A DNA stretch of 64,000 bases. Origin: Escherichia phage BEU50. A model generated the notes under the pieces. That model saw nothing but the letters and a program-made list of their open reading frames with translations, made no database searches and was not told where the DNA came from. The stretch lies in sequence record OM632671.1. One strand, 5' to 3'. Positions 43,410-63,178 of this stretch are shown piece after piece. Each line of letters opens with the position of its first letter. Position 1 is the first letter of the stretch. A program made the position numbers and the translations under genes.

Positions 43410-43886
43410 ATGATTATCAATGAAAACTCTTGGCACTTTAAAATTTATGCCGCGTTCAATAGTACATGGAATCGTCCGAAAACGTTATGTGCTTATTTTT
43501 GGAAAACGTTTCTCCCGGTATTGGCTGCTTCAATTATTGGATTTGCGATTTTAGCAGCAGTCACAATCATTGGCCAGGAAATTTTAACTAAATTCTTTGT
43601 TTTTAGCAGTCTATGGACATTAGTTCTGGCTTCAATTGGTGTAGGCATTTTAATGGTAGCAGTCATGGCTTTTATTGCTACCGGGTTGGTAATTGGTCCG
43701 TCTTGGTTGTTAGACAAATATAACGACAGAAAATATTATAAAGAAATTGAGCTCATTGCACAAAACCAAGAACGAATTAAAAATGGACTTGAGCCTATTG
43801 AACGTAAGAAATCGATTATCGTTGAATTTTTAAAAGCTCGTAAAGCTAAAGTGTGTCCTACTCTTGAATACAAGCCAGGCAAATGA
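43410..43886 (+). CDS. hypothetical membrane protein
   Basis: Hydrophobic TM segments; 158 aa. Confidence 0.55.
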   Translation: MIINENSWHFKIYAAFNSTWNRPKTLCAYFWKTFLPVLAASIIGFAILAAVTIIGQEILTKFFVFSSLWTLVLASIGVGILMVAVMAFIATGLVIGPSWLLDKYNDRKYYKEIELIAQNQERIKNGLEPIERKKSIIVEFLKARKAKVCPTLEYKPGK

Positions 43887-44665
43887 ATTATATCAAATGT
43901 TATGATGCAATAATTCAACGAGGAAAACTTAGAGGCAGTGATAAGTCTGAGTTGAATTATTATACTGAATCCCATCACATAATCCCTTCATGTATTGGAG
44001 GGAGTGATGACCCGAGTAATAAAGTTTTATTGACTGCCAGGGAACATTTTATCGCTCATTGGTTATTATCAAAAATTCACCCAAACTCTGAAGGATTGAT
44101 TTACGCTTACTGGGCGTTCTATAATTTAGGCGAAGATGCTTTAGGACGAAATCTTAAATTAACCTCAAGAGGCTATAAAGACGTAAGGGAAAAGTTTTCA
44201 GAAATTCACTCTAATAGAATGAAAGATATATGGGAATCACAAGAATATCGTGATAAGCGTTCAGCGACCATGAGCCTCCCTGAGATAAAGGCTAAAATGT
44301 CAGATTCTCAAATAGAGGCACAGAATAGACCTGAAGTTAAAGCAAAAATATCTACTGCTATCAAAGAGGCCTTTAAGAGAGATGATGTTAAAGAACGGCA
44401 TTCAAGAGCTGTTAAAAAGGCCCTAGATAATCCAGAAACTAAAAAGAGACAGTCTGAAGCGTCTAAAGCTAGACAACGAACTGGTAAACACTGGGAAGAT
44501 TATGATATGCTTTACGAACTTTGGATTAAATTGAATCGACCTAAGCGTGGGGCTTTCGGAACCCATATTAGTAAAATGGGTTATCCTAAATCAAATTACC
44601 AACGCTTAATATTACAGTTCATTGAAGATTATGAAAGGAAAGTGAATAATGAAAACGATTGTTAA
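43883..44665 (+). mobile_element. free-standing HNH homing endonuclease (Mob-like) with C-terminal repeated DNA-binding motifs
   Basis: HNH core ESHHIIPSCIGGSDDPSNKVLLTAREHFIAHWLL; C-terminus LYELWIKLNRPK...GYP shared with the HEG at 62324. Confidence 0.8.
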
Positions 44666-45635
44666 GGCTTACTTTGGTAGCCACCTTTATGGAACGTCTA
44701 CCCCTGAATCTGACGTTGATTTTAAAGAAATTTATGTCCCTCATGCTCGTGATATCTTGACCGGTAACGTTAAAGAACATATGAGCAAGAACACGAATAA
44801 CACATCTTCTAAGAACACAAAAGACGACGTGGACCATGAGTTATATAGTCTCAAATATTTCTTTAAACTAGCTGCAGATGGTGAAACTGTCGCATTAGAT
44901 ATGCTTCACACTCCACCAAGTCTAGTAGTTAAATCTGATTTGCCTGATGTATGGAAGTATATTCAAGATAACAGGTCTCGTTTCTATACCACTAACATGA
45001 AATCTTATTTAGGGTATGTCCGTAAGCAAGCTTCTAAATACGGTGTCAAGGGTTCTCGACTGGCTGTTCTTCGTCAAGCCCTTAAACGTTCTAATGAATG
45101 GGGACAATACTTTGATAATGGTGCAGTAATTCGTTTATCACATATGAAGAATGTTCTGCCTGTAGGTGAATTTGCTTCATGGGTTGAAACCGAAAACGAG
45201 AAAACAGGTAAGCAAACATTCTATAATCTGTTAGACCGTAAATTCCAAGATACGTTAACCAATAAAGAGTTCAATGCCATCCTGGTTAAACTGGAAGAGA
45301 ACTACGGTGAACGTGCTCGTAAGGCGGAAGCCAACGAAGGTATTGACTGGAAAGCATTGAGTCATGCATGCCGTGGTGGACTTCAACTATTGGAAATTTA
45401 CAAAACCGGCGACCTGGTTTACCCACTTCAGGATGCTCCATTTATTCTCGATGTTAAGCTTGGTAAACATACGTTTAAAACTGTACAAGAATTCCTAGAA
45501 GATATCGTTGACCAAGTTGAACAAGCATCAGAACAAGCCGCTAAGAACGGTATGCAACAAAAAGTAGATATGAGTTTCTGGGATGACTTCCTTGAACAAG
45601 TCTATCTCGAAAATCATAATTCTTACTATAAATAA
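44649..45635 (+). CDS. predicted Pol-beta-superfamily nucleotidyltransferase-fold protein
   Basis: N-terminal motif YFGSHLYGTSTPESDVDF (GS...SDxD); 328 aa; start overlaps the HEG end. Confidence 0.55.
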   Translation: MKTIVKAYFGSHLYGTSTPESDVDFKEIYVPHARDILTGNVKEHMSKNTNNTSSKNTKDDVDHELYSLKYFFKLAADGETVALDMLHTPPSLVVKSDLPDVWKYIQDNRSRFYTTNMKSYLGYVRKQASKYGVKGSRLAVLRQALKRSNEWGQYFDNGAVIRLSHMKNVLPVGEFASWVETENEKTGKQTFYNLLDRKFQDTLTNKEFNAILVKLEENYGERARKAEANEGIDWKALSHACRGGLQLLEIYKTGDLVYPLQDAPFILDVKLGKHTFKTVQEFLEDIVDQVEQASEQAAKNGMQQKVDMSFWDDFLEQVYLENHNSYYK

Positions 45636-45666
45636 GTAGATAAATAACCATTAACTTGAGGTAAAT

Positions 45667-45948
45667 ATGAAAAAATTAGTAATTGGTTTATTCGCAGTAA
45701 TGATGGCATTCTCTGTTGGTGCTACCACAGGTGCTGCTGGCGGTAGTGCAGGAGCTGGTGGTAACCAGTCTTCTGGGCCTTCCAATGGTTCGGTAAATGC
45801 ATCACATTCTCAGGGTATTGAGAACATTAAATCAAGCTATATTAATAGCACGGCAGGTCAAGCAACTGAAGCATGGTCAAAGGGCCGAGTAGTTACTCGC
45901 TCCGTATTCTGTGATATGCCTAATTATGTTGCTAAGTGCGATAAGTAA
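45667..45948 (+). CDS. small secreted Gly/Ser-rich protein with C-terminal Cys-x8-Cys loop
   Basis: Signal peptide MKKLVIGLFAVMMAFSVGA; AGGSAGAGGNQSSGPSNGS; C-terminal CDMPNYVAKC. Confidence 0.55.
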   Translation: MKKLVIGLFAVMMAFSVGATTGAAGGSAGAGGNQSSGPSNGSVNASHSQGIENIKSSYINSTAGQATEAWSKGRVVTRSVFCDMPNYVAKCDK

Positions 45949-45952
45949 ATGT

Positions 45953-45973
45953 GGGGACCTTCGGGTCCCTTTA
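45953..45973 (+). terminator. rho-independent terminator
   Basis: gggacc-ttcg-ggtccc followed by TTT. Confidence 0.6.
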
Positions 45974-45999
45974 GGGGGTTAAAATATTTTTAAAAAGTA

Positions 46000-46029
46000 G
46001 TGTACATGCTTTTAGGATATGTTATTATA
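46000..46029 (+). promoter_or_regulatory. early promoter (GTGTAC -35, TATTAT -10), PeSL family A variant
   Basis: Downstream 5' UTR aaacgaaatgagtaaattggag resembles the 28420 copy. Confidence 0.5.
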
Positions 46030-46066
46030 GACCTATCGAAACGAAATGAGTAAATTGGAGAATAAA

Positions 46067-47047
46067 ATGTTCAACGTTCAAATCAAAAAAGGTATCTATC
46101 GTAATAACGAAATCTCTGGTTCTTATGTTGCCACAAAGACATGGTTCCCGGCAAAGCTTAATCCTGAATGTTCCCACTTAGGTGATGGTAAAATTTTCGT
46201 TATGATTGATGGTTCTGAACGTGGAGTATGGGTCTTCAAATCAGACATCGTAATGGAAGGAGTTGAGACATCTCCAGTTTCAGTTGTTGAAAGCACTGAA
46301 GATATGAAAACTCGTATCAACAAACGCTTTAAAGTAATGAACATGATGACGAATGGCATTATCGATGGCAAAATTCGTTCACTCATTATTTCAGGTGCAG
46401 CCGGTATTGGTAAGACGTATTCTCTGGATAAAGCACTTAATAATGCTAATGATAATGGTTTCATCAAATACAAAAGCATTAATGGTAAAATCTCTGGTAT
46501 TGGCCTTTACGAACAACTTTGGCTCAACCGTGATGCATACAGCGTTCTCTTAATCGACGACGTTGATGTATTCTCAGATATGGACATCTTGAACCTTCTT
46601 AAAGCAGCATTAGATACCGGAGATAAACGCAAAGTTTGTTGGAGCACTGCGTCATCTTATCTCGATGATAAGGGTATTGATAAAGAATTTGAGTTTGAAG
46701 GTACTATCGTTTTCATTACAAACGTTGATATCGATAAAGAGTTAGAACGCGGTTCGAAACTTGCTCCGCACCTTCAAGCTTTAGTATCTCGTTCAGTGTA
46801 TTTGGACCTTGGAGTACACTCTAATGAAGAGATTATGGTTCGAGTTGAAGATGTAATATTATCTACTGACATGATGCAGAAACGTGGCCTGACGGATGCA
46901 GAAACGTATAAAGCATTGTCCTGGATGAAGGCTAACGTATCTCGTCTTCGCAATGTATCATTACGTACGGCTCTTTATGTAGCGGATTTTATTTCAACTG
47001 ATAAAGATGGTTGGGAGGAAATCTCTGAAGTAACTTTACTGAAATAA
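46067..47047 (+). CDS. predicted P-loop ATPase
   Basis: Walker A SGAAGIGKTY, Walker B LLIDDVD; 326 aa from the second ATG after SD ggag. Confidence 0.6.
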   Translation: MFNVQIKKGIYRNNEISGSYVATKTWFPAKLNPECSHLGDGKIFVMIDGSERGVWVFKSDIVMEGVETSPVSVVESTEDMKTRINKRFKVMNMMTNGIIDGKIRSLIISGAAGIGKTYSLDKALNNANDNGFIKYKSINGKISGIGLYEQLWLNRDAYSVLLIDDVDVFSDMDILNLLKAALDTGDKRKVCWSTASSYLDDKGIDKEFEFEGTIVFITNVDIDKELERGSKLAPHLQALVSRSVYLDLGVHSNEEIMVRVEDVILSTDMMQKRGLTDAETYKALSWMKANVSRLRNVSLRTALYVADFISTDKDGWEEISEVTLLK

Positions 47048-47185
47048 GCTTATAGGAAGTTCTGAGGTAACAAAAGCCATAAAGATGAATAATCATATGG
47101 CTTACCTCAAAGAAGGACACCAGGAACCTACTGAGGGCATAGAAATATTTAAAAATAATGATGTACAAATCAAAGAGGATATGTT

Positions 47186-47473
47186 ATGGATTTTATGCAA
47201 AAAATTAAAGCCGCAGTCGAACTCTATGCTCATCGTATGGTTAGTTCTACAATGCAATATAGCGAGGAGGTTCGCCAGGACTCTTCCTTGAAAGGAAAAA
47301 CTAGAGCCTTAATTACCTTAGACCGTCTACAAAAGAATGCCATAGAGATGCTCCAGTACGACAAGGGTGTATATAAGAAAGAACAGGAAGAGAAACTTAA
47401 ATCTGAAAAATTACAAAAAATCCCGAAGTCTGTTTGGTTCAGTGGAAAAAATACCGAAAAAAGTTTCTTTTAG
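47186..47473 (+). CDS. hypothetical protein
   Basis: 95 aa from ATG after SD agagga. Confidence 0.5.
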   Translation: MDFMQKIKAAVELYAHRMVSSTMQYSEEVRQDSSLKGKTRALITLDRLQKNAIEMLQYDKGVYKKEQEEKLKSEKLQKIPKSVWFSGKNTEKSFF

Positions 47474-47475
47474 TT

Positions 47476-47505
47476 GTTTACAAGGTCTATGGTTATGTTA
47501 TTATA
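47476..47505 (+). promoter_or_regulatory. early promoter (GTTTAC, 17 nt, TATTAT) with IR aggtctat / atagacct
   Basis: GTTTAC 47476-47481. Confidence 0.6.
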
Positions 47506-47531
47506 GACCTATCAACTACTGGAGGTAAAAC

Positions 47532-48059
47532 ATGAACGCTAAAGATATTTTCAACCTGGTAAATTATAACGACGGTAAATTTAAATCTGAAGCACAAAGC
47601 AAGTTCTTTAATGACGTTGCTTATGGTAACGAGATTACCGTGGACGGAGGTCAGATTTTCAAATCTCGCTGGAATTGGATTGTTATCATCGATTCAGTTG
47701 GAATTGTGGAAGTCTACAAAAACACTAACAAAAAACGTACATTATTCTGGTCTCGTGAAACTAACGAGCAGTACAAAAAGGATAAAGCATCTCGTTTATC
47801 CAAAGTAACCCAGGAAGATATCGAGTTTATCAAGAAAGATATCGAGATGTACGAAAATTTAATCGCTGAAGACCAGGCAGTACTCGATAAGTTTGATGAA
47901 ATTAAAGCTTCTCGTGAAATCCCTGACTTCATGAAAGAAACAGTAAACGAACGATACGCTCTCACTTCAGAACGTATTGCAAACTATACAAAACAGAAAG
48001 CAGAACGTATTAGTACTCTTCGGAAATTTGAAGAACGTTTAAAGACGGTTCACGCATAA
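47532..48059 (+). CDS. hypothetical protein
   Basis: 175 aa ORF after SD ggagg. Confidence 0.55.
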   Translation: MNAKDIFNLVNYNDGKFKSEAQSKFFNDVAYGNEITVDGGQIFKSRWNWIVIIDSVGIVEVYKNTNKKRTLFWSRETNEQYKKDKASRLSKVTQEDIEFIKKDIEMYENLIAEDQAVLDKFDEIKASREIPDFMKETVNERYALTSERIANYTKQKAERISTLRKFEERLKTVHA

Positions 48060-48060
48060 A

Positions 48061-48086
48061 CGCTTTACCCAAGGACGGGTTATAAT
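48061..48086 (+). promoter_or_regulatory. promoter-like element, degenerate PeSL family C (ccaaggacgg, TATAAT)
   Basis: gctttacccaaggacgggttataat upstream of the ORF at 48122; -35/-10 spacing is irregular. Confidence 0.35.
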
Positions 48087-48121
48087 GGTTTTGAGTTCCA
48101 ATTCAATCTGAGGAAATAGTT

Positions 48122-49117
48122 ATGAGCATTACATCTGATGCGGTAAAACATGAAATTAACGGTTTATGTGCTTCACAGATTAAAGTGTGGTTTAAAGACC
48201 ATAATGATCGCAGAGCACTTAATTATGAGCAAATTGCTATCCAAGTTCATCAATTACTGACTAGTAAATTTGATTTTCATATGCCGTCTGAAATCTATAC
48301 TAATCTGCCGCGAGCGCTTATTAAAGCGTGTAAAGGTTACGGAAAATCAATGGCTGATGGAATCTTCAGCGCGCTGAATAAACTTAACGTTCTGTCGATG
48401 ATTAACTCTAACAACATCCTGCGTAATCTAGGACGTACTGATTTGTTCGGTCGTGAACAGTGTAAAATGCCTTTGAAATGGATTGTTGCTCATCTTAACG
48501 AGAACCAAACACGTTTTATGGCCGTATCAGCACGCTTACAAATGGGTCTAGATCGTCAGATGAACTTTAAAACTCATCCATGTTATTCAGGTTCAACAGA
48601 CTTTTATAAATGTGAGCTTCAAAAGGTTGGTGGCAAAACTGTCTTAGTAGTTCGTGTAACGTTTGAAGGACGACGTCAAGGATATTTTAACCTAATCGGC
48701 TCTGGTCTTAAACATTGTGGATTTATCGACGAAGTTGATATCAAGCGAGACGGCACTGGATATCGTATTGGATATGTTTGTACTCTTAAAGAAGAGATTT
48801 CAGGACCAGCTCCAGGACTAAAAGATGTTAGATATAAAGATGAGCTCGTTGAAGAAATAAAAGAAGTTGAATATGATATCAACCAAGAAGATGCTCTTAA
48901 AGACCTTATTGATGAACTAAACCAAGACGTTATTCCGGTTCAGAAATTTGAATCAAAACATGCTGAGCAAATCAAATACTTTGAAGCTTTGATTAACGAA
49001 CTTAATGTAACTATTCAACAGACCGACGATGAAATCTCACGATTAGCAGGCTTAAACGGTAAAAATAAAACAGAACGAGCTAATCTTATTCAAGTAGTAA
49101 AACTTCTTAAGGAATGA
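48122..49117 (+). CDS. hypothetical protein with C-terminal coiled coil (tandem cassette, 1 of 3)
   Basis: 331 aa; no recognised domain. Confidence 0.6.
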   Translation: MSITSDAVKHEINGLCASQIKVWFKDHNDRRALNYEQIAIQVHQLLTSKFDFHMPSEIYTNLPRALIKACKGYGKSMADGIFSALNKLNVLSMINSNNILRNLGRTDLFGREQCKMPLKWIVAHLNENQTRFMAVSARLQMGLDRQMNFKTHPCYSGSTDFYKCELQKVGGKTVLVVRVTFEGRRQGYFNLIGSGLKHCGFIDEVDIKRDGTGYRIGYVCTLKEEISGPAPGLKDVRYKDELVEEIKEVEYDINQEDALKDLIDELNQDVIPVQKFESKHAEQIKYFEALINELNVTIQQTDDEISRLAGLNGKNKTERANLIQVVKLLKE

Positions 49118-49147
49118 TGTACAACCAAGGATGGTTGGAGTATAATA
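49117..49147 (+). promoter_or_regulatory. early promoter, PeSL family C
   Basis: atgtacaaccaaggatggttggagTATAAT; 27 nt identical to the 50137 copy. Confidence 0.6.
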
Positions 49148-49172
49148 AATTTTTCAACATGAGGAATATAAA

Positions 49173-50132: not shown

Positions 50133-50136
50133 AATA

Positions 50137-50167
50137 GTTTACAACCAAGGATGGTTGGAGTATAATG
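50137..50167 (+). promoter_or_regulatory. early promoter, PeSL family C
   Basis: GTTTACaaccaaggatggttggagTATAAT. Confidence 0.65.
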
Positions 50168-50194
50168 AATCTATCTTAACGAGAGGAAAATATT

Positions 50195-52451: not shown

Positions 52452-52579
52452 ACCGTGGTATTCGGCTCGATGGGAGACAGTCGAGCCAGACGTCGAAACA
52501 GTTTACAACGACGAAGAAACGTGTTATGATGAACCTTCAATAAATGAATTAATTAATATGGAAATGGGAAGAGATTATT

Positions 52580-52790: not shown

Positions 52791-53262
52791 ATGTTATTAT
52801 CAGGCAAAATATAAAGAAGAAAAACAAAAATTTTATGATGCACAGAATGGTAAGTGTCCTATTTGCCACCGTGAATTAGACCCTGATGTTCAAGGTAACC
52901 ATCTTGACCACGACCACGAATTAAACGGGCCAAAAGCCGGTAGAGTTCGTGGATTACTCTGTAATCTGTGCAACGCAGCAGAAGGTCAAATGAAGCATAA
53001 GTTCAACCGTTCCGGTCTTAAAGGACGTGATGTTGACTACCTCGAATGGCTTGAAGCTCTTCTTGCTTATTTGAAACAAGATTATTCTTATAATAATATC
53101 CATCCTAATTTTGTTCCAGACAAAACTAAAGAGTTCTCAAGACTAGGTAAAGAGGAAATGATGGCTGAGATGCTTCAAAGAGGATTTGAATATAATGAAT
53201 CTGACACCAAAACACAGTTAATAGCTTCATTTAAGAAGCAACTTAGAAAGAGTTTAAAATGA
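52791..53262 (+). pseudogene. 49: endonuclease VII (gene 49) interrupted by a frameshift at codon 7; internal-start ORF 52990-53262 intact
   Basis: ATG 52791 gives MLLSGKI then stop; the +1 frame from 52810 encodes YKEEKQKFYDAQNGKCPICHRE...CNLCNAAEGQMKHKFNRSGLKG..., matching recalled T4 EndoVII; apparent 2-nt loss in aaaatat(at)aaag. Confidence 0.7.
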
Positions 53263-55076
53263 CAATTGAAAAAGAAATTGAAGGATTGATTCATAAAACT
53301 AATAAAGACCTTTTAAACGAGAATGCTAATAAAGATTCTCGTGTTTTTCCAACTCAACGGGACCTTATGGCTGGTATTGTGTCTAAACACATTGCCAAAA
53401 ATATGGTCCCGTCTTTTATTATGAAAGCGCATGAAAGCGGAATTATCCATTTCCACGATATTGATTATTCCCCTGCTCTTCCATTTACTAATTGCTGTTT
53501 AGTAGATTTAAAAGGAATGCTTGAGAACGGGTTTAAGCTCGGTAATGCACAGATTGAAACTCCTAAATCAATCGGTGTTGCTACTGCAATTATGGCACAA
53601 ATTACTGCACAAGTTGCTTCACACCAGTATGGCGGAACGACTTTTGCTAATGTAGATAAAGTACTTTCTCCTTATGTTAAACGCACCTATGCAAAACATA
53701 TTGAGGATGCAGAAAAATGGCAAATCGCTGATGCGTTGAATTATGCTCAATCCAAAACAGAAAAAGATGTCTATGACGCATTCCAAGCTTATGAATATGA
53801 AGTAAACACTCTCTTTAGTTCAAACGGACAAACGCCTTTTGTAACAATTACATTTGGTACGGGAACTGACTGGACTGAACGAATGATTCAGAAAGCAATT
53901 CTGAAAAATCGTATTAAAGGTCTTGGTCGTGATGGGATAACTCCTATTTTCCCTAAGCTTGTTATGTTCATTGAAGAAGGTGTTAATCTTTATAAAGACG
54001 ATCCGAACTATGATATTAAGCAGCTTGCGTTAGAATGTGCAAGCAAAAGAATGTATCCTGACATTATTTCGGTTAAGAATAATAAAGCTATTACCGGTTC
54101 ATCTGTTCCTGTTTCTCCAATGGGTTGCCGTAGTTTCTTGAGTGTATGGAAAGATTCAACCGGTAATGAAATTCTTGATGGTCGCAATAATCTTGGTGTT
54201 GTAACATTGAATCTTCCTCGCATCGCGTTAGATTCTTATATTGGAACGCAATTTAACGAACAGAAATTTGTTGAATTATTCAATGAACGAATGGATTTAT
54301 GTTTTGAAGCTTTGATGTGTAGAATTAGTTCCTTAAAAGGAGTTAAAGCGACTGTTGCTCCTATTCTTTACCAAGAAGGTGCATTCGGGGTTCGTCTTAA
54401 ACCTGATGACGATATAATTGAGTTATTTAAAAATGGTAGAAGTTCAGTGTCCCTAGGATACATTGGTATTCACGAATTGAATATTCTTGTCGGTCGTGAT
54501 ATTGGACAAGAAATTTTAACTAAAATGAATGCTCATCTTAAACAGTGGACTGAAAGAACTGGATTTGCTTTTAGTTTATATTCGACTCCTGCTGAAAACC
54601 TTTGTTATCGCTTCTGTAAACTTGATACAGAAAAATATGGAAGTGTAAAAGATGTTACCGATAAAGGCTGGTACACTAACAGTTTCCACGTTTCAGTAGA
54701 AGAAAATATTACTCCGTTTGAAAAGATTTCTCGTGAAGCGCCATATCATTTCATTGCGACAGGTGGTCACATTTCTTATGTTGAACTTCCTGATATGAAA
54801 AATAACTTAAAGGGTCTTGAGGCCGTATGGGATTATGCTGCACAACATTTAGATTATTTTGGTGTTAATATGCCAGTAGATAAATGTTTTACATGCGGAA
54901 GTACCCATGAAATGACTCCTACTGAAAACGGATTTGTTTGTTCTATTTGTGGAGAAACTGATCCTAAAAAGATGAATACCATAAGAAGAACATGCGGCTA
55001 TCTTGGAACTCCTAGCGTTGTTCCATGGAATTTAGGTAAAATGAAAGAAATGGTAAAACGAGTAAAACATGCATAG
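53259..55076 (+). CDS. nrdD: anaerobic ribonucleoside-triphosphate reductase NrdD (no intron)
   Basis: 605 aa uninterrupted; C-terminal Zn Cys cluster and glycyl radical motif RRTCGYLG. Confidence 0.95.
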   Translation: MTIEKEIEGLIHKTNKDLLNENANKDSRVFPTQRDLMAGIVSKHIAKNMVPSFIMKAHESGIIHFHDIDYSPALPFTNCCLVDLKGMLENGFKLGNAQIETPKSIGVATAIMAQITAQVASHQYGGTTFANVDKVLSPYVKRTYAKHIEDAEKWQIADALNYAQSKTEKDVYDAFQAYEYEVNTLFSSNGQTPFVTITFGTGTDWTERMIQKAILKNRIKGLGRDGITPIFPKLVMFIEEGVNLYKDDPNYDIKQLALECASKRMYPDIISVKNNKAITGSSVPVSPMGCRSFLSVWKDSTGNEILDGRNNLGVVTLNLPRIALDSYIGTQFNEQKFVELFNERMDLCFEALMCRISSLKGVKATVAPILYQEGAFGVRLKPDDDIIELFKNGRSSVSLGYIGIHELNILVGRDIGQEILTKMNAHLKQWTERTGFAFSLYSTPAENLCYRFCKLDTEKYGSVKDVTDKGWYTNSFHVSVEENITPFEKISREAPYHFIATGGHISYVELPDMKNNLKGLEAVWDYAAQHLDYFGVNMPVDKCFTCGSTHEMTPTENGFVCSICGETDPKKMNTIRRTCGYLGTPSVVPWNLGKMKEMVKRVKHA

Positions 55077-55088
55077 GGTTAAACACCA

Positions 55089-55721
55089 ATGAATTATGAC
55101 AGAATCTATTCAAATCTAGTTAATTCTGCTGAACACCCATCTAAGCCCCGTCAAACTAAAGCCGGGTATGAACTTCATCATATAATTCCAAGAAGCATGG
55201 GTGGTCCAGATGATTTAGACAACTTAGTATTTTTAACTTATAAGGCCCACTATACTGCTCACCATTTATTGGCTAAAATATATGGTGGAAAGATGTATGA
55301 TGCATATTGGATAATGAGTAATAGTAAGCATAGAAAAGTTACTTCTTCACAATACGCGTATGCAAAAGCTAAGAAATTTGAAAATCAGCGTGGCGCAAAA
55401 AGAAGCGATAAAACTAAGAAGCTAATGAGCATAGCTAGGTCTAAAGTAACTCTTCCTGATGATTTTGGAAAAAGGATATCTGATGGGCTAACAGGAAGAA
55501 CTTTGTCTACTAGTCATAAAGAGCATATCAAAAATAGTTCTAGAAATCGCTTTAACACCAAAACGGTTATTGGCTATTCACCAGACGGAAATACAATAGA
55601 ACTAACTGGAGCAACTGAAATAAGAAATGCAGGATTTTTTCATTCTGCTGTTTATAAATGTTGCAAAGGAATTCAATCTATTCATAAGGGATATACTTGG
55701 AAATATAAAGATGAATTATGA
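55089..55721 (+). mobile_element. free-standing HNH homing endonuclease between nrdD and nrdG
   Basis: HNH core YELHHIIPRSMGGPDDLDNLVFLTYKAHYTAHHLL; first 7 codons (MNYDRIY) match nrdG; stop overlaps the nrdG start. Confidence 0.8.
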
Positions 55722-56181
55722 TAGAATATACCCGTGCTGCTTTGTTAATGGTCCTGGATGCAGGGTCGTTCTCTTCGTCACTGGATGTTTGCATAAATGC
55801 GAAGGTTGTTATAATCGTAGTACTTGGAATGCTCGTAACGGACAGTTATTCACTATGAATACCGTTAAAGAACTTGCGTCCCATTTAAGCAAATCGTATA
55901 TCCAAGGCCTTACCTTAACCGGTGGTGACCCACTTTATCCACAGAACCGAGAAGAGATTTCAAATTTAGTTTCTTGGGTTAAAGCAAGATTTCCGGAGAA
56001 AGATATCTGGTTGTGGACAGGATATAAGTTTGAAGATATTAAACAGCTAGAAATGCTTAAATATGTTGATGTTATTATTGATGGGAAGTATGAGAAAAAT
56101 CTTCCGACTAAAAAGCTGTGGCGAGGATCAGATAATCAGCGACTTTGGTCAAATACCGATGGGGTGTGGAAACATGATTAA
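55711..56181 (+). CDS. nrdG: anaerobic ribonucleotide reductase activating protein NrdG
   Basis: MNYDRIYPCCFVNGPGCRVVLFVTGCLHKCEGCYN (radical-SAM CxxxCxxC); 156 aa. Confidence 0.93.
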   Translation: MNYDRIYPCCFVNGPGCRVVLFVTGCLHKCEGCYNRSTWNARNGQLFTMNTVKELASHLSKSYIQGLTLTGGDPLYPQNREEISNLVSWVKARFPEKDIWLWTGYKFEDIKQLEMLKYVDVIIDGKYEKNLPTKKLWRGSDNQRLWSNTDGVWKHD

Positions 56182-56291
56182 ATTGAATTACATTATGGAT
56201 ACTATAAATGATATGATTTTTCGTTTTGGTCCAGAATTTTATTCGCAATATAGTTTAGTGCTTATCAATGCTTAGTTAATTAAGGGTAAAT

Positions 56292-56504
56292 ATGTATAAA
56301 TTTCGTAAAGGTTTAGCTGATTTTCTTACAACTGTAACATTCTTTTTGTTTATGGCAGTTGGAGCTATTTTTCTTATTCCTTTTACTGCTGTATTTTTCG
56401 TGATTAGTTTAATTTCTCCGGAAAAGGGTTTATCCTCCAGCGAATTCAATGAACGTTTGGACAAAATTACTAATAAACTGAATTCTGTTCTTGGCAAGGA
56501 ATAA
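56292..56504 (+). CDS. hypothetical small membrane protein
   Basis: Two hydrophobic helices; 70 aa. Confidence 0.5.
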   Translation: MYKFRKGLADFLTTVTFFLFMAVGAIFLIPFTAVFFVISLISPEKGLSSSEFNERLDKITNKLNSVLGKE

Positions 56505-56506
56505 TT

Positions 56507-56815
56507 GTGGAACACAACAAGATTGAAATTTATGGCATCCCTGAAGAAGTAGGACGTTGTCCAGGATGTTATACTGTTACAAAACTTTTAAAGGAGCTCA
56601 ATGCTCCTTATACATTTTATAAAGTCCTCACTAATAATGGTAAGATTGAATATGACCGTCCTTTAATCGTATCTCTTGCTAAACGTGCAGGATTCACTTC
56701 ACTTAATATTCGTTATCCTGTCATATTTTTAAATGATAAGAAACAAAAGAATATTGCAGAGTTTAAAAAGTCCTTGATTTCATTAGGATATGACTCTGAT
56801 ATCATAGAAGATTGA
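56507..56815 (+). CDS. nrdH: glutaredoxin-like protein (NrdH-like)
   Basis: CPGC redox motif in a thioredoxin-like context; GTG start after SD aagga; adjacent to nrdG. Confidence 0.65.
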   Translation: MEHNKIEIYGIPEEVGRCPGCYTVTKLLKELNAPYTFYKVLTNNGKIEYDRPLIVSLAKRAGFTSLNIRYPVIFLNDKKQKNIAEFKKSLISLGYDSDIIED

Positions 56816-56838
56816 CCAGGTGCCGCCTGGTCTTCTTT
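56814..56838 (+). terminator. rho-independent terminator
   Basis: gaccagg-tgccg-cctggtc followed by TTCTTT. Confidence 0.6.
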
Positions 56839-56923
56839 ATCTCATTTCTAATATAATCCATTGGAATCTTCACTTCACTATCTCCTTGTGCCCCTCTCAA
56901 ATCGAAAATATTTTCATAAAACA

Positions 56924-56953
56924 GTTTACATCCTCAATAGACGTGTTAAGATT
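56924..56953 (+). promoter_or_regulatory. early promoter (GTTTAC, 17 nt, TAAGAT)
   Basis: GTTTAC 56924-56929. Confidence 0.45.
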
Positions 56954-56980
56954 AAACCATCTACTATAGAGGAAAATAAA

Positions 56981-57163
56981 ATGACAATTGAAGATAAAGA
57001 AATTAAGGTTGACCAGTACTATTCTGTCAACGGTAATGCAGTACAGATAACCAGAGTTTCAAGCCTGGATGTTTGGTACCGTTTAATCAAATATCCAGAA
57101 ATTGGCGAAATGCTTTGTGACCGTGGTATCTTCTGTTCAATTGCGAAGGAAATTAAGCCATGA
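56981..57163 (+). CDS. hypothetical small protein
   Basis: 60 aa from ATG after SD agagga. Confidence 0.5.
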   Translation: MTIEDKEIKVDQYYSVNGNAVQITRVSSLDVWYRLIKYPEIGEMLCDRGIFCSIAKEIKP

Positions 57164-57408: not shown

Positions 57409-57415
57409 GGTACTT

Positions 57416-57709
57416 ATGGGTAAAACATATCGTCGTAAAGATTTGAAAGTTCGCGATTACGACTATTTTGGTAAGCGTAAAGCTCCTGATGGTGTTAGCC
57501 ACAAAGACATGGTTGAAAACATTTTCCGCTCAGATAAATGGAAACGTATGAAAGGCGTTGATTCTGAAGTCAAGAATGAAATGAATCGACAACTCCGCAA
57601 AGAAGTTCGTAAGTTGAAAAAAGATGTTTACAGTAAAGAAGAGTATGATTATAATACTTCTCATACTGAAGCCAAACGTAAAGCTAACGAATGTTATCGT
57701 TACAGTTGA
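57416..57709 (+). CDS. hypothetical basic protein
   Basis: ATG after SD gagg; lysine/arginine rich. Confidence 0.5.
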   Translation: MGKTYRRKDLKVRDYDYFGKRKAPDGVSHKDMVENIFRSDKWKRMKGVDSEVKNEMNRQLRKEVRKLKKDVYSKEEYDYNTSHTEAKRKANECYRYS

Positions 57710-57848
57710 GGAAATTATGAATATCAAACGCTGGCTTTTTAAGCAAGGGTTCTACACTTTAAATGCTACTCCAAAAGGCGATACAACTAAGTGGTCAGTA
57801 ACTGACTGGATTAAATTTATTGATGAAAATGGCAATTGGGAAATTTAA

Positions 57849-58049
57849 ATGAATCCTGAATCTATGTTATCTCAAAAACTTCGTGAAGAACGTGCCGAAT
57901 TCTTTGCCAATATGAAACTCAACGGTGTTGAGGATGAAGACTTCTTACGCTGGTTCTGGATTTACAAATACAAAGAATGCCAGCACGCTGTACTACTGAC
58001 TTGTGCAGTTATGTACGAAGGCTGGAAAGGCGCTAAAAAGTTCGGTTAA
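57849..58049 (+). CDS. hypothetical protein
   Basis: 66 aa ORF. Confidence 0.45.
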   Translation: MNPESMLSQKLREERAEFFANMKLNGVEDEDFLRWFWIYKYKECQHAVLLTCAVMYEGWKGAKKFG

Positions 58050-58113
58050 TAATGTACAACGATAGGAAGACATGTTATTATCTTTCCTATCGTCTTAAAA
58101 TGAGGAAAATATC

Positions 58114-58353
58114 GTGGCCCAAGAATTAGATTTTATCAAATTCAAAAAACACCTCGACGTTAAAATTGGGGATTCAATTGTTAGGATTGAGTATGACATT
58201 TTAACAGATGCTATTACTGTTAGTTGTGATGGAAATAGTTTCAGCTTCGATACAACCGAAAACAAGTACCCAATCTATAAAGGCATCTTTGATATGGGTG
58301 TTGATATTACTCCACGTGATACAAATTACTTACTTTTCATGCTTAAAAAATAG
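58114..58353 (+). CDS. hypothetical protein
   Basis: GTG start after SD gaggaaa; 79 aa. Confidence 0.45.
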   Translation: MAQELDFIKFKKHLDVKIGDSIVRIEYDILTDAITVSCDGNSFSFDTTENKYPIYKGIFDMGVDITPRDTNYLLFMLKK

Positions 58354-58383
58354 TATACAAACTCTTGAGAGATGAGTATAATT
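58353..58383 (+). promoter_or_regulatory. early promoter with IR around the -10 (PeSL family D, second copy)
   Basis: GTATAC ... gagaga-tgagTATAATtctctc; about 50 nt near-identical to 32191-32240. Confidence 0.55.
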
Positions 58384-58419
58384 CTCTCGTTGGATAATAA
58401 AATAACCGAGGAAAATAAT

Positions 58420-58752
58420 ATGTCTACTAAAATCAAAAACGTAGTTAATTCTTTCGCTTTCGATAAAGTTGTTGCTCTTCTGGAATCCGGCAATATTGTT
58501 ACTCCTCAAGTTCTTGACGCGTGGGAATTCCGTCTTTATGAAATCATGCAAAAACACGACCAGAAAATTGGACGTAATTCTATTCGTGAAATTCTAGTAC
58601 AATATATTCTTTCTGAATTTGACGTTGCTGCATTTGGTGTTGAATCTAAAGCTTATCAGAAACATGAAATCTCTGAAAAGACTATCCGTCGTATGAAAAA
58701 TCAACGTAAGAAAAAATTCGTTGACCTGAAAATTGTTAAGGCGGTAAAATGA
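58420..58752 (+). CDS. hypothetical protein
   Basis: 111 aa from ATG after SD gaggaaa. Confidence 0.55.
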   Translation: MSTKIKNVVNSFAFDKVVALLESGNIVTPQVLDAWEFRLYEIMQKHDQKIGRNSIREILVQYILSEFDVAAFGVESKAYQKHEISEKTIRRMKNQRKKKFVDLKIVKAVK

Positions 58753-58976
58753 GCGTATTAACAGAAACTTTGATTAATGACCTGCGTCTAGCTGGTTACG
58801 AAGTTGGTACAAATAGCCTAGGTCTTCCTCAGATTGAAGGGCCTGGATTTATCCTAGAATATGAATTCAAACAATGGTGGTTATATGCTACGGTTGACGA
58901 TGCGTTGAATATTGATTTTGTTGACCAATTTGATTCGTTGGATGCTGCTCTTGAAGCAGCAAAGGAACTAGAATGA
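58749..58976 (+). CDS. hypothetical acidic protein
   Basis: 75 aa ORF, ATGA-coupled. Confidence 0.5.
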   Translation: MSVLTETLINDLRLAGYEVGTNSLGLPQIEGPGFILEYEFKQWWLYATVDDALNIDFVDQFDSLDAALEAAKELE

Positions 58977-59242
58977 AATTAACTCGAATCAGTATAACTG
59001 AAGAAAAGCTGGGCGAATTTTATGTTGACGAATACATGAAAGTCACGTATTTTCCATTCGTTAAAGGTGTTGGTTTTTGGGAAACTCATGTATCTCAATT
59101 AAACGAAGGCGACTATAACGAAACACATGAGAACTTTTTAGATTTTCTTTATAATGCCGGTCTTACTGAGCTTTATATCGATATCCATGAGTTCAAACGT
59201 TTAATGGAAAAAGTGTTTCAGGCTTATTGTTTGCTCCGATAG
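58973..59242 (+). CDS. hypothetical protein
   Basis: 89 aa ORF, ATGA-coupled. Confidence 0.5.
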   Translation: MKLTRISITEEKLGEFYVDEYMKVTYFPFVKGVGFWETHVSQLNEGDYNETHENFLDFLYNAGLTELYIDIHEFKRLMEKVFQAYCLLR

Positions 59243-59314
59243 TATCTCGTGCTTTAAGATAGGTCTCTAAATATTATGATATAATAGACCTATGAATTGA
59301 GCCAAGAGGTACTT

Positions 59315-59872
59315 ATGACTGAACAAAAACCTAAAAATAACTATGTGAATAATAAAGAGCTTCTCGCTGCTATAATCGAGTGGAAAAAGGAGCTCTTAAA
59401 TAATAAAGACCCAAACAAAATTATTCGTCAGAATGATACCATCGGATTAGCAATTATGCTTATCGCCGAAGGCCTGTCCAAACGTTTCAACTTTTCAGGA
59501 TATACCCAGTCTTGGAAGCAGGAGATGATTGCAGATGGGATTGAAGCCTCTATTAAAGGTCTTCATAATTTCGACGAAACTAAGTACAATAACCCACATG
59601 CATACATAACTCGAGCTTGTTTTAATGCTTTTGTCCAACGTATCAAAAAAGAACGTAAGGAAGTTGCAAAGAAATATAGTTACTTCGTTCATAATGTCTA
59701 CGACAGTCATGACGATGATATGGTAGCGTTGGTAGATGAAACGTTTATTCAAGACATCTACGATAAAATGACGCATTATGAAGAATCCGCTTATAAAGCT
59801 CCTGGGGCTGAAAAGAAGGAAGTTGTTAGCGATTCGCCTAGTTTGGATTTTTTATATGAGGATGACAATTGA
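59315..59872 (+). CDS. 55: late transcription sigma factor gp55
   Basis: [63 protein letters not shown]... near-identical to recalled T4 gp55; ATG after SD gagg. Confidence 0.95.
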
Positions 59873-60071
59873 CATCTCTAACTATTTAGAAGAACCTTTT
59901 GACGAAGCAATCCCTTATTTGGTAAAACTGTTGGGTCGTGAATTTAAAATTAATTTTGACATCGACCCTTTGAACCCACATGACGTGTCATTTTCGATAA
60001 ATGGGACTCCGGTTGAGTATGAGTTCTGTATTGAAGAGGATGGGCGTTTTTATTTTAATTTAATGAGATAA
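59862..60071 (+). CDS. hypothetical protein
   Basis: 69 aa from ATG after SD gagg, overlapping the gene 55 stop. Confidence 0.5.
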
Positions 60072-60072
60072 T

Positions 60073-60396
60073 ATGACTACCGAGATTATTGAAAATAAAG
60101 AAGCAGAAGATGCAGTAGCTAAAATGCTACAAGAAATCCAAAAGAAAAATGAAGCTGAAGCACGTAAAAAATCCGAAAAGATTCTTAAAAAGAATCGTTT
60201 TGAACTAAACCGTCTTTATGCTCATGCTCAAGAAGCAGCAATTCAAAACAACTTCGAAGCTTACGAATATGCTATTAAGAAATCTCGGGATATTCTACGA
60301 CAACCATATAATGACAAGTTAATTAAAATCCAGTGGGTTACTACTCGTCAGGCTATTGAGGACATCATTAATGGCGCTAGTTCAAACAAAGTTTAA
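60073..60396 (+). CDS. hypothetical protein
   Basis: 107 aa ORF. Confidence 0.5.
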   Translation: MTTEIIENKEAEDAVAKMLQEIQKKNEAEARKKSEKILKKNRFELNRLYAHAQEAAIQNNFEAYEYAIKKSRDILRQPYNDKLIKIQWVTTRQAIEDIINGASSNKV

Positions 60397-60577
60397 ACGT
60401 CTGAAGCTGAACGCAGGGTTCACCCTTAAATTGGGAGGTCCTCTTTGTGTTAAAATTTCTGAAAAGGAATATCACGACGGTTCTATTACAGAAATTTGTC
60501 CGCCTATTGTAAAGGCAGACCCAAAACAACTCGTGTGGGTCGATTCATTTCAAGTTAAGAAATGGTGGAAACGATGA
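60371..60577 (+). CDS. hypothetical protein
   Basis: 68 aa from internal ATG of the track ORF 60356. Confidence 0.4.
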   Translation: MALVQTKFKRLKLNAGFTLKLGGPLCVKISEKEYHDGSITEICPPIVKADPKQLVWVDSFQVKKWWKR

Positions 60578-60789
60578 GAGAAATTGATTTAGGCATTTTC
60601 TGAGAGGTGCTTATGCATGACGAACGACCTGACCTCTGAAAATTTCGATAAAATCCGTAAAGGCAAAGCAGAAAGAATGAGACGTTTTAAAGAGTCTTAT
60701 GATAAAGCTAAAGCCGAAGGAACTATTACATACAAGCCCATTAGATTTAAAAGTTCAAATGAGCCTCTGTACGGTGTACTATGTGGATA

Positions 60790-60814
60790 GGAACTCTTCG
60801 GAGTTCCTTTTTTT
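60790..60814 (+). terminator. rho-independent terminator
   Basis: ggaactc-ttcg-gagttcc followed by TTTTTTT. Confidence 0.7.
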
Positions 60815-60840
60815 GCTTTATAAACGGATGATAAAATGAA
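60813..60840 (+). promoter_or_regulatory. candidate MotA-dependent middle promoter upstream of gene 47
   Basis: MotA-box-like TTTGCTTTA followed about 12 nt later by TAAAAT; T4 genes 46/47 are middle genes. Confidence 0.4.
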
Positions 60841-60860
60841 TTAACTAATGAGGAAATAAT

Positions 60861-61880
60861 ATGAAAATTTTGCACTTAGGCGACTTCCATATCGGAGTCA
60901 AACAAGACGACCCATGGGTTCAAGATATTCAACGTGATGGTATTCGTCAAGCAATTGAATACTCTAAGAAACACGGGATTAAAACTTGGATTCAGTACGG
61001 TGATTGGTTCGACGTCCGTAAAGCAATAACACATCGTACAATGGAATTCAATCGTGAAATCGTTGATATGATTTCTAAAGCAGGCATTCACGTTCATGTC
61101 ACGATAGGAAACCATGACATGGCGTTTAAGAATACAATAACACCCAACACTGTTTCTGAATTGTTAACTCAATTTGAAAATTTTACTATTTACGAGCATC
61201 CAACTACTGTAGATTTTGACGGATGTCTTATTGATATCATTCCATGGATGTGTGAAGAAAATACAGGTGAAATCTTAGAGCACATCAAGACTTCTTCTGC
61301 AGCGTATTGTGTTGGGCACTGGGAACTGAACGGCTTTTATTTCTATAAAGGGATGAAGTCTCATGGGCTTGAACCTGATTTCTTAAAGACCTATAAACAA
61401 GTCTGGTCCGGCCACTTCCACACAATCTCTGAAGCTGCTAACGTCAAATATATTGGGACACCATGGACCCTTACTGCAGGTGATGAGAACGACCCACGCG
61501 GATTCTGGGTATTTGACACTGATGTTGAACGTATGGAATTTATTCCTAATGAAACAACATGGCATCGACGAATCACTTATCCGTTTAAAGGCAAAATCAA
61601 TTATTCTGATTATACTAATCTAGCCGTACGTGTTATAGTATCAGAAATTGATTCAGAGTTGACTAAGTTTGAATCTGAACTTGAAAAAGTAGTTCACTCT
61701 CTTCGTATGGTTTCTAAAGTTGATAACAGTGTTGAATCTGATGACGACCAGGAAATCGAGATTAAATCACTTCAAGATATCATTAAAGAATATATTGACG
61801 CGATTCCAGATATCTCAGACGAAGACAGAGAAGCGCTGGTCAAATATTCCAACGAACTTTATATTGAGGCAACACAATGA
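60861..61880 (+). CDS. 47: recombination endonuclease subunit gp47 (Mre11-like)
   Basis: Phosphoesterase motifs LHLGDFH, GNHD, GHWE; 339 aa as in T4 gp47. Confidence 0.95.
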   Translation: MKILHLGDFHIGVKQDDPWVQDIQRDGIRQAIEYSKKHGIKTWIQYGDWFDVRKAITHRTMEFNREIVDMISKAGIHVHVTIGNHDMAFKNTITPNTVSELLTQFENFTIYEHPTTVDFDGCLIDIIPWMCEENTGEILEHIKTSSAAYCVGHWELNGFYFYKGMKSHGLEPDFLKTYKQVWSGHFHTISEAANVKYIGTPWTLTAGDENDPRGFWVFDTDVERMEFIPNETTWHRRITYPFKGKINYSDYTNLAVRVIVSEIDSELTKFESELEKVVHSLRMVSKVDNSVESDDDQEIEIKSLQDIIKEYIDAIPDISDEDREALVKYSNELYIEATQ

Positions 61881-62140
61881 CTTTAGATGAATTTAACAAT
61901 GCTGGACTCAGGCTTGAAGTTGAAATGGACGTTAAAGATGATGATGGATTCGAGAACACTATCAAGTATTGGATTGAGCCATTACGCGTTGAAGGCAATG
62001 AAGTTAAAGCAGTTCATGTCTGCACCGACTGGGCTGTATCCTTTAACTTCAACATTTTAGATAATGACACACCTAAATCATTGCGAGATATGGCTGTATC
62101 TTGTATTAAGGATGCATACTGTGAAGTTTTCGACATTTGA
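61877..62140 (+). CDS. hypothetical protein (46.1/46.2 position)
   Basis: 87 aa ORF between 47 and 46. Confidence 0.5.
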   Translation: MTLDEFNNAGLRLEVEMDVKDDDGFENTIKYWIEPLRVEGNEVKAVHVCTDWAVSFNFNILDNDTPKSLRDMAVSCIKDAYCEVFDI

Positions 62141-62323
62141 CATTAATGATGAATTCATAGCAAACATTGATTATACCGAAGAAGATTCTAGATATGTTGG
62201 AATAATTTATATTACATCAAAAACAGCACAAGGCGTTGTTTGCATGGCTGAATTTGATGAATACTTTTTAGATTATGATGATATGATAGAATGGTCTAAA
62301 AGATACATTAAAAGGAATCTTTT

Positions 62324-63178
62324 GTGAAGAATTTTAAACTTGATATTAATGACGAATTTTTAATAAAGGAATTAGTTGAAAAATTAGTGTTGAGCGAAGA
62401 AGACGCCAAGTCTTACATTAATTTTATTTCTATGAATTCAACTGTTAAAACTCCGGGTAAAACGGAAGCACATCACGTGCTTCCTAAATCAATATTTCCT
62501 GAATATTTAAAATCTACATGGAATTTAGTTAATTTAAGTCATTTTAATCATTTCAAAGCACATTTCTTATTAGCAAAAGGTAAAAATGGAAAAATGCTAA
62601 ATGCTTTAAATAGAATGATGTCAGGAAAAACATATAAAAATTTATCTTTAGCCGAAGTTGATTTAATAGCTGCTGAATATAGTTTTATAAGACAAGATGT
62701 AAGTGACACAATATCAAAAAGGCTTCAACAATATTATTCAAATCCGCAAAATAGAAATGCTGCTAGAGAAAGGGCATTAAAATATTTTTCAGTAGCAAAA
62801 AATAGGAAAGATAACAAAGAAAGATTAAATAATTTTAAAACAAAACAAAAAATTTCAATGGCTTCAAGGGAATGGTTTAATAACGAAGAAAATAAAATTA
62901 AACACCAAAAGGCTGTTCGTGCTGCTTTATCAAAACCTGAATATAAAATAGCTATATCAAATTCAGTAGCTGCTAGTTGGAAAAATCCGGAGATTAGAAA
63001 AGCTCATATAGCATCTCGACGAAAAGGCTATCATTGGGATAATAAAGATAAATTGTATGAATTGTGGATATCATATAATCGTCCTAAACATGTGATGTTT
63101 AGGAAAATGTTAGTTAAGAATGGATATCCAATAGAGGCTTCATTACAGGCTTTAGTTAAAGAATTTTCTTCATTGTGA
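62324..63178 (+). mobile_element. free-standing HNH homing endonuclease (Mob-like) between genes 47 and 46
   Basis: HNH core TEAHHVLPKSIF...NLVNLSHFNHFKAHFLL; C-terminus paralogous to the HEG at 43883; very AT-rich; GTG start after SD aaagga. Confidence 0.75.

Follow-up and report, generated by a model that had tools for sequence, protein, structure and literature searches.

A 64,000-nucleotide (nt) stretch of the genome of Escherichia phage BEU50 (sequence record OM632671.1), referred to here as the window, carries three free-standing HNH homing endonuclease genes (HEGs) related to the mob genes of phage T4. Comparison with other phage genomes makes it very probable that these genes entered a phage of the genus Mosigvirus at three different times and that they spread by homing. 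Two of them lie in sharply bounded blocks of sequence from another genus, Tequatrovirus, which bear the marks of co-conversion during homing. The three genes belong to a known class, comprising two named T4 genes (a mobD-like gene and mobC) and one unnamed HEG of a type present in phage T6, now found in a Mosigvirus. Their positions are as follows.

43883-44665, + strand: HEG 1, mobD-type HNH homing endonuclease gene, 260 amino acids (aa), ATG start (open reading frame (ORF); PHROG 655)
55089-55721, + strand: HEG 2, mobC, 210 aa, ATG start (nucleotide identity; Pfam HNH)
62324-63178, + strand: HEG 3, HNH homing endonuclease gene of the T6 ORF054 type, 284 aa, GTG start (ORF; PHROG 655)

Three Mob-family genes in a Mosigvirus

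An earlier note, made from the letters of the window, had listed three HNH ORFs at these positions, and all three are indeed present, uninterrupted and on the + strand (ORFs 1, 2 and 3 are HEG 1, HEG 2 and HEG 3). Each matches PHROG 655, annotated as ‘homing endonuclease’, with E values of 7e-56, 2e-42 and 3e-45, respectively, and by homology all belong to the T4 Mob family of free-standing HNH homing endonuclease genes. They reside outside introns and inteins, between conserved genes of the same orientation. The Pfam HNH model (PF01844) recognizes ORF 2 with 26.8 bits against a curated cut-off of 21.4; ORF 1 reaches 16.9 bits, below that cut-off, and ORF 3 has no Pfam match. Nevertheless, the residues of the pattern E..HH..P..N..H...H are invariant in all three ORFs and in 18 further relatives (E48, H50, H51, P54, N67, H76 and H80 in HEG 3 numbering). 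All three proteins also retain full length, the reference proteins being T4 MobC (210 aa), the T6 protein (284 aa) and T4 MobD (259 aa).

Homology between ORFs 1 and 3 extends across almost the entire protein (31% identity in 241 aligned columns, E value 2e-23); with ORF 2 the similarity is in the N-terminal nuclease domain (39% identity to ORF 1 over 82 aa). The C-terminal module that the earlier note had recognized in ORFs 1 and 3 is real (HWEDYDMLYELWIKLNRPKRGAF..GYP versus HWDNKDKLYELWISYNRPKHVMF..GYP). However, this LYELWI..NRPK..GYP module is widespread across the family, and therefore is no mark of a special link between the two. Likewise, the description of these two as paralogous captures their homology, but all three ORFs are homologous and none is a within-genome duplicate, because each has a far closer relative elsewhere (T4 mobD, T4 mobC and T6 ORF054). 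‘Independently acquired family members’ is the more accurate term. A search of the 64-kb window with the three HEG proteins (tblastn) revealed no further HNH paralogue.

An AlphaFold model of HEG 1 (predicted local distance difference test score, pLDDT, 90.6) displays a beta-beta-alpha HNH core at residues 28-65 (pLDDT above 89), about six helices of 11-24 residues at residues 95-198, and a small helical C-terminal bundle. Foldseek comparison of the model with the PDB gave a best E value of 0.2, with matches confined to the HNH core. The C-terminal module is probably a DNA-binding domain; fragments containing this module in isolation have no Pfam match, and NCBIfam has none for HEG 1 or HEG 3. 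The middle region of HEG 1 gives a weak NUMOD3 (PF07460) match (E value 0.27), and many homologues have precomputed PF07460 matches.

By its sequence matches the window is assigned to Mosigvirus, the RB69-like genus of T-even phages, as are phages a20 and NRG-P0074. Region 43000-64000 matches 983 phage records, none of them identical to it, and is matched by approximately 130-170 Mosigvirus-like records. The closest are NRG-P0074 (96.8% identity, 95% covered) and a20 (98.6% identity, 90% covered). Genes on the + strand follow an order of the T4 early type: nrdC.11, nrdC, endonuclease VII, nrdD, nrdG, nrdH, 55, 47, 46.2, 46.1 and 46. The presence or absence of each HEG was counted across 50,697 phage records.

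Order of arrival of the three genes

The earlier note had proposed comparison with relatives that lack the insertions, and this comparison reveals that the HEGs are sporadic rather than fixed at identical positions in all relatives. Among Mosigviruses, AlbertHofmann carries none of the three, a20 carries the first only, and NRG-P0074 carries the first and the third. This nested pattern implies an order in which the mobD-like gene came first, the T6-type gene next and mobC last. The newest arrival thus appears to be mobC, which is 100% identical to Tequatrovirus copies and is not shared with the Mosigvirus relatives examined, rather than the third gene, which had been put forward as the recent one.

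A scan for exact 60-mer matches, covering the ~14.8 kb of region 43000-64000 for which an alignment to nine Tequatrovirus loci was obtained, localized the exchanged sequence. Exact Tequatrovirus matches of at least 100 nt occur in only three places in these 14.8 kb: nrdD, the block containing mobC and the block containing HEG 3. Both donor tracts reach only about 90-335 nt past the HEG. Since native Mosigvirus sequence flanks the two HEG-containing blocks, nrdG, 46.2 and gene 46 are chimeras.

The mobC block

The tract of foreign sequence surrounding mobC, and the genes on either side, are listed below.

53259-55076, + strand: nrdD, mosaic allele, anaerobic ribonucleotide reductase large subunit; last ~70 nt of Tequatrovirus type
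54999-56045, no strand assigned: putative mobC co-conversion tract, 1,047 nt, comprising the nrdD 3′ end, mobC and the first ~300-335 nt of nrdG (mismatch list)
55711-56181, + strand: nrdG, chimera; approximately nt 1-300 of the mobC-linked type, rest of the common T-even type (allele comparison)

The second ORF lies between nrdD and nrdG, as had been noted. Its DNA is 100% identical to mobC of the Tequatroviruses vB_Shso_BCPShso_001 and vB_Sen_BCPSen_003, and its protein is identical to MobC of SHFML-11. The T4 gene is 99.5% identical over 633 nt with only two amino acid differences, occupies the same slot between nrdD and nrdG, overlaps nrdG by the same 11 nt and is linked to the same nrdG 5′ allele. 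The settings differ in that this genome is a Mosigvirus rather than a Tequatrovirus and in that its nrdD lacks the I-TevII intron. Moreover, nrdD here stops 12 nt before mobC, as in BCPShso_001, whereas the T4 nrdD stop overlaps the mobC start.

Copies of mobC are present in 31 phage records, including T4, RB55/59, HP3, SHFML-11 and BCP phages. The carriers whose taxonomy was retrieved (T4, T4T and BCPShso_001) are Tequatroviruses. Klebsiella phages account for three of the records; one of them, Boboto, was checked and belongs to Jiaodavirus. The gene is absent from the three Mosigvirus relatives examined, and no known Mosigvirus is found among the 31 record names. A total of 699 records match at least 80% of the nrdD/nrdG junction of a20, in which no HEG is present; most of those sampled are uninterrupted, and a few contain another HEG.

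The boundaries of the block are evident from runs of perfect identity. Positions 54999-56045 have zero mismatches to BCPShso_001, and positions 56008-56400 have zero mismatches to NRG-P0074. At informative sites, defined as those where three HEG-less Mosigviruses agree and the Tequatrovirus differs, all 99 sites at 55009-56007 are of Tequatrovirus type and all 155 at 56142-56992 are of Mosigvirus type. Together, the site types and mismatch runs indicate that the import spans the last ~80 nt of nrdD, all of mobC and ~300 nt from the start of nrdG.

Upstream of position 54999 the tract has no assignable donor, because no record matches the nrdD of the window better than 97.3%. The end of nrdD (55009-55076) is a distinct allele with 16 extra nucleotides and a changed C-terminus (...NLGKMKEMVKRVKHA), shared with BCPShso_001 and lacking in T4, T2 and a20. 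Across Tequatrovirus and Mosigvirus nrdD is 95-97% identical, compared with 60-85% for neighbouring genes. Repeated exchange driven by HEGs or introns could explain this homogenization.

The nrdG gene provides a further record of transfer. HEG-less nrdG alleles (a20, NRG-P0074, AlbertHofmann and T2) are 92-99% identical across two genera. In the window, nrdG nt 101-300 (positions 55811-56010) are 99-100% identical to those of mobC-carrying phages and 54-56% identical to the alleles of T2 and of Mosigviruses without a HEG. In all phages examined that carry mobC, T4 included, this segment likewise shares 54-56% identity with the T-even allele lacking a HEG. It is 92% identical to the segment of the Klebsiella Jiaodavirus JD18, which lacks mobC, and from nt 301 onward the mobC-linked allele is again 99-100% T-even-like. 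These similarities suggest that nrdG of T4 itself is a chimera with a 5′ part resembling that of Klebsiella phages.

On the simplest reading, the mobC cassette would have arisen in a phage with a Jiaodavirus-like nrdG and entered the T4 lineage together with ~300 nt of that gene. The chimeric mobC/nrdG arrangement would then have passed, on the same reading, to the Mosigvirus examined here. A related event has left its trace in Klebsiella phages. Boboto has mobC and the conspecific JD18 does not, and the first 100 nt of Boboto nrdG are 99% T4-like compared with 82% identity to JD18, which implies an independent second short tract centred on mobC.

The HEG 3 block

HEG 3 is embedded in a second block, whose components are as follows.

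60861-61880, + strand: gene 47, Mosigvirus type
61877-62140, + strand: gene 46.2, chimera; Mosigvirus type to 62029, Tequatrovirus type from 62036 (site types)
62036-63265, no strand assigned: Tequatrovirus-type block, 28.5% G+C (GC), comprising the 46.2 3′ end, 46.1, HEG 3 and the first 72 nt of gene 46 (informative sites, sliding identity)
62112-62327, + strand: gene 46.1, Tequatrovirus allele replacing the native Mosigvirus 46.1 (identity comparison)
63194-64000, + strand: gene 46, running off the window; first ~72 nt of Tequatrovirus type, rest of Mosigvirus type (site types)

The earlier note's description of HEG 3 as lying between 47 and 46 holds loosely, but 46.2 and 46.1 intervene, and the gene is more precisely placed between 46.1 and 46. 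Its closest counterparts are T6 ORF054 (98.7% nt identity) and the SHFML-26 ‘homing endonuclease’, with 98.7-99.2% across T6-type copies. These share the slot between 46.1 and 46, the GTG start and the flanking 46.1 allele, and differ in that HEG 3 is embedded in Mosigvirus 47/46.2 and 46. The GTG start overlaps the stop of 46.1. No name for, or experimental study of, the T6-type HEG was found in the literature searched. Its DNA is present in 70 phage records, and a query spanning its Mosigvirus junction finds NRG-P0074 only, with HEG 3 itself 100% identical to the NRG-P0074 copy.

Positions 62036-63265 are 98-100% identical to the Tequatroviruses T6 and SHFML-26, and the flanks are 60-85% identical. 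Outside the block, 129 sites upstream and at least 74 downstream are of Mosigvirus type. NRG-P0074 has the same left crossover and a right end ~40 nt further on (63303), which suggests a single acquisition of HEG 3 followed by further exchange.

The AT-rich character of the third gene was correctly recognized, with 28.5% GC in ORF 3 compared to a window mean of 37.5%. The tract 62560-62900 that had been singled out has 25.5% GC, below 99.9% of windows of equal size. Indeed, the twelve lowest-GC 855-nt windows of the 64 kb (in 50-nt steps) all start at 62001-62551. Recent acquisition of this gene, which had been proposed from its composition, is supported by stronger evidence in the form of the Tequatrovirus-identical block, such that direct comparison of donor and recipient supersedes the base-composition argument. 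T2 and RB68 harbor truncated copies of 204 and 208 aa, compared to 284 aa, as expected for the degeneration of a selfish element.

HEG 1, a mobD relative

HEG 1 and the sequences around its point of insertion are as follows.

43875-44644, no strand assigned: segment absent from AlbertHofmann, 770 nt replacing 4 nt (BLAST end points, junction alignment)
44649-45635, + strand: nrdC.11 homologue, predicted nucleotidyltransferase, displaced by HEG 1 (ORF, homology)

By sequence and position, HEG 1 is best described as a diverged mobD orthologue. It shares 74.4% amino acid identity with T4 MobD over 258 of 260 residues (E value 6e-129), the same slot and orientation directly upstream of nrdC.11, and the same C-terminal LY.LWIKLNRPKRG.FG..ISK.GYP module. 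It differs from the T4 gene in being a distinct allele (~70% nt identity) and in having a membrane-protein gene rather than mobD.1 as its upstream neighbour. Relatives in VR26, TH40 and E33 are 78-81% identical and each time lie directly upstream of nrdC.11. Across the phage records, the DNA of HEG 1 is found in two, a20 and NRG-P0074. The assertion that all three genes lie next to conserved DNA-metabolism genes fails for HEG 1, since nrdC.11 is not an established DNA-metabolism gene.

Compared with the mobD-less Mosigvirus AlbertHofmann, the insertion is clean and falls at a stop/start overlap. The membrane-protein gene upstream ends, and HEG 1 begins, in a shared ATGA, whose ATG is the one that starts nrdC.11 in AlbertHofmann. 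At its 3′ end HEG 1 overlaps the nrdC.11 homologue by 17 nt.

Capture of start codons

For the other two HEGs, the start of the displaced gene is present twice, once at each end of the cassette.

55089-55109, + strand: left copy of the duplicated nrdG start, ATGAATTATGACAGAATCTAT, encoding MNYDRIY and used as the mobC start (repeat comparison)
55711-55731, + strand: right copy of the duplicated nrdG start, ATGAATTATGATAGAATATAC, encoding MNYDRIY and matching the left copy at 18 of 21 nt (repeat comparison)
62324-62341, + strand: left copy of the gene 46 start, GTGAAGAATTTTAAACTT, encoding MKNFKL; in T4, where HEG 3 is absent, gene 46 opens with the same 18 nt
63194-63211, + strand: regenerated gene 46 start, ATGAAATCATTTAAACTT, encoding MKSFKL (sequence comparison)

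In HEG-less phages the nrdD stop overlaps the nrdG ATG. Alignments of the start sites indicate that each of the three HEGs occupies the start codon of the gene it displaces and thereby takes over that gene's translation start, and the 3′ end of each cassette appears to supply a regenerated start for that gene. The captured codons number seven of nrdG for mobC, six of gene 46 for HEG 3 and 13 of nrdG for a gene of Tequatrovirus KK4. Thus, a common rule may hold for the lineage comprising mobC, the T6-type gene and the KK4-type gene, in which insertion occurs in frame a few codons inside the target and reuses the start codon, ribosome-binding site and first 6-13 codons. We did not find this rule described in the literature searched. 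Takeover of a start codon fits a review of T4, which describes such genes as promoterless cassettes relying on upstream signals (PMC2988022). The Boboto mobC starts with MNFDRIY, as does NrdG of JD18, placing the left crossover inside the repeat.

The KK4-type HNH gene occupies the nrdD/nrdG slot, starts with 13 NrdG residues, ends with ...NEL over the nrdG start and is 36% identical to HEG 3, from which it differs by another middle region. In T6 the same slot is occupied by SegH, which belongs to a different nuclease family (GIY-YIG) and lacks captured codons. At least three unrelated or distantly related HEGs (mobC, segH and the KK4-type gene) are therefore held by this slot in various phages, and Jiaodavirus has an additional 72-aa ORF there. 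Clustering of proteins at 90% identity groups MobC with 156-aa NrdG proteins, which may be an artefact of the overlapping mobC and nrdG frames and carries no biological meaning.

Homing and its alternatives

In the proposed mechanism, a nuclease encoded by the HEG would nick or cut the HEG-less allele near the start of the downstream gene during a mixed infection. The break would be resected and repaired by the phage recombination system with the HEG-carrying genome as template, and repair would copy the HEG along with a few hundred bases of flanking donor sequence. We infer that the three proteins have nuclease activity at present, either nicking or cutting.

The one Mob protein with experimental evidence, T4 MobE, is encoded by a promoterless, free-standing gene of the same family and has an N-terminal HNH domain; it acts in the 5′ portion of the gene that follows its own, and flanks are co-converted (PMC2790892). 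Its nicks fall at nt 122-126 of that gene, nrdB, where polymorphisms protect the genome that encodes MobE (PMC2790892). By analogy, the common nrdG allele would be attacked by MobC in its 5′ part, with the target predicted to lie in the first 300 nt, and the HEG 3 target would be located around the 46.1/46 junction. MobE differs in its C-terminal domain and in its target, nrdB, such that nicking by the three proteins of the window is itself an analogy. The intron-encoded I-HmuI (PDB 1U3E) differs in genetic context and is similar in its modular construction, with an HNH domain and extended DNA-binding modules. The C-terminus of MobC gives a weak match, below threshold, to the NUMOD-like domain of I-HmuI (Pfam E value 0.016-0.04; PDB sequence search E value 0.34).

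For mobC a more specific account can be assembled, in which an active cross-genus homing element derives its cassette from a Jiaodavirus-like phage, has left T4 with a chimeric nrdG, recognizes a target in the 5′ 300 nt of nrdG and inserts by start capture. On this account, the window would supply the first evidence from natural history that mobC is such an element. We consider the chances of this combined account, which is drawn from sequence comparisons, to be evenly balanced.

Several observations weigh against spread of the three genes by homing. In a 2010 review of T4, mobC and mobD carry the entry ‘activity not determined, target unknown’ (PMC2988022), and no later study of MobC or MobD activity was found in the literature searched. 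T-even phages recombine very actively, and nrdD itself is mosaic, so a HEG could ride passively in an ordinary recombination patch. The mobC block is known from this one sequence, and its junctions are not seen in an independent genome. For HEG 1, the flanks diverge weakly from AlbertHofmann (76-88% identity over ~80 nt upstream) and no donor is known outside this Mosigvirus clade, so that the sequence gives no indication of how this gene entered. Finally, the T4 late-promoter motif TATAAATA is absent near the three HEGs (the nearest is at 45627) and its total count is at chance level, and scans for sigma-70 promoter and terminator consensus sequences returned nothing specific.

Passive hitch-hiking, in which blocks were swapped by ordinary T-even recombination and the HNH genes were inert cargo, draws on the high frequency of such recombination and on the patchwork of both site types in nrdD, for which there is no single donor. 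It would also explain crossovers that fall where donor and recipient are similar, for example in the 3′ part of nrdG (99-100%). However, outside of nrdD, the only long Tequatrovirus-identical tracts in the alignable sequence are the two that contain a HEG. These tracts are short beyond the HEG, a tract centred on mobC recurs independently in Jiaodavirus, and catalytic residues and full length are kept, making inert cargo an improbable explanation. Still less probable is that the mobC block is an assembly chimera, produced from a sample containing a Mosigvirus and a SHFML-11-like Tequatrovirus by path switches in nrdD and in the 3′ part of nrdG. The block is 100% identical to a Tequatrovirus, is in no other Mosigvirus record, and has its right end in a stretch identical in both genera. 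Such mixtures exist: the ‘Sextaphag’ cocktail contains the Mosigvirus 6phi8, whose nearest relatives are NRG-P0074 and a20, together with a SHFML-11-like Tequatrovirus (PMC13600099), although a tie between this product and the window is not established. The GC content of 6phi8 is 37.45%, compared to 37.46% in the window, and a cocktail of this kind would also offer a natural setting for a genuine transfer. On the left side, however, the shared exact stretches are short, with mismatches to a20 at 54944, 54945, 54977 and 54998, and nrdD upstream of 54999 is an exact match to neither parent type. The analogous HEG 3 block is confirmed by the independent genome of NRG-P0074, and Boboto provides an equivalent natural mobC event.

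The genes might instead be domesticated or decaying descendants of HEGs that no longer home and that are kept because they carry start signals for nrdG, gene 46 and nrdC.11 or because they exclude competitor genomes, or that have not yet degraded. Because the displaced genes take their ribosome-binding region and start from the 3′ ends of the cassettes, deleting a HEG outright would do harm, as has been argued for T4 (PMC2988022). Also compatible with loss of homing is the 26% divergence of the mobD allele from T4 MobD at the protein level. Sandegren et al. reportedly found in 2005 that SegH and Hef also cut HEG-containing genomes. Nevertheless, mobC and HEG 3 have 98.7-100% nt identity across genera, which indicates transfer too recent for a changed function. 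Decay is visible where it is present, as in the truncated copies of T2 and RB68, and none is seen in the window. We therefore regard domestication or decay as unlikely, and favor acquisition by homing for the genes described here.

Implications

If read as homing footprints, the blocks date the three invasions relative to each other and indicate that gene flow among Tequatrovirus, Mosigvirus and Jiaodavirus has been limited to ~1-1.2 kb around each HEG. The same events would have rewritten nrdG, gene 46, 46.1 and 46.2, genes that are essential or conserved, as chimeras. Beyond membership in a known class, the analysis adds co-conversion maps, chimeric nrdG, 46 and 46.2 genes, a replaced 46.1, a likely origin and target region for mobC, and start-codon capture. 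Candidate substrates are the nrdD-nrdG junction of a20 or T2 for MobC, and the 46.1/46 junction of T4 for the T6-type enzyme. Should the phage come from a mixed therapeutic cocktail, HEGs would have flowed between its components, which bears on the genetic stability of phage-therapy products.

Other features of the window

Two further segments distinguish the window from its relatives. Positions 45634-46018, around a Gly/Ser-rich ORF of 93 aa at 45667-45948, are a20-like and unlike NRG-P0074. Positions 28433-33194 hold 4.8 kb in place of 2.1 kb of NRG-P0074, with approximately nine small genes. All of these fall into PHROGs of unknown function, with no nuclease among them, and the segment is a typical hyperplastic region.

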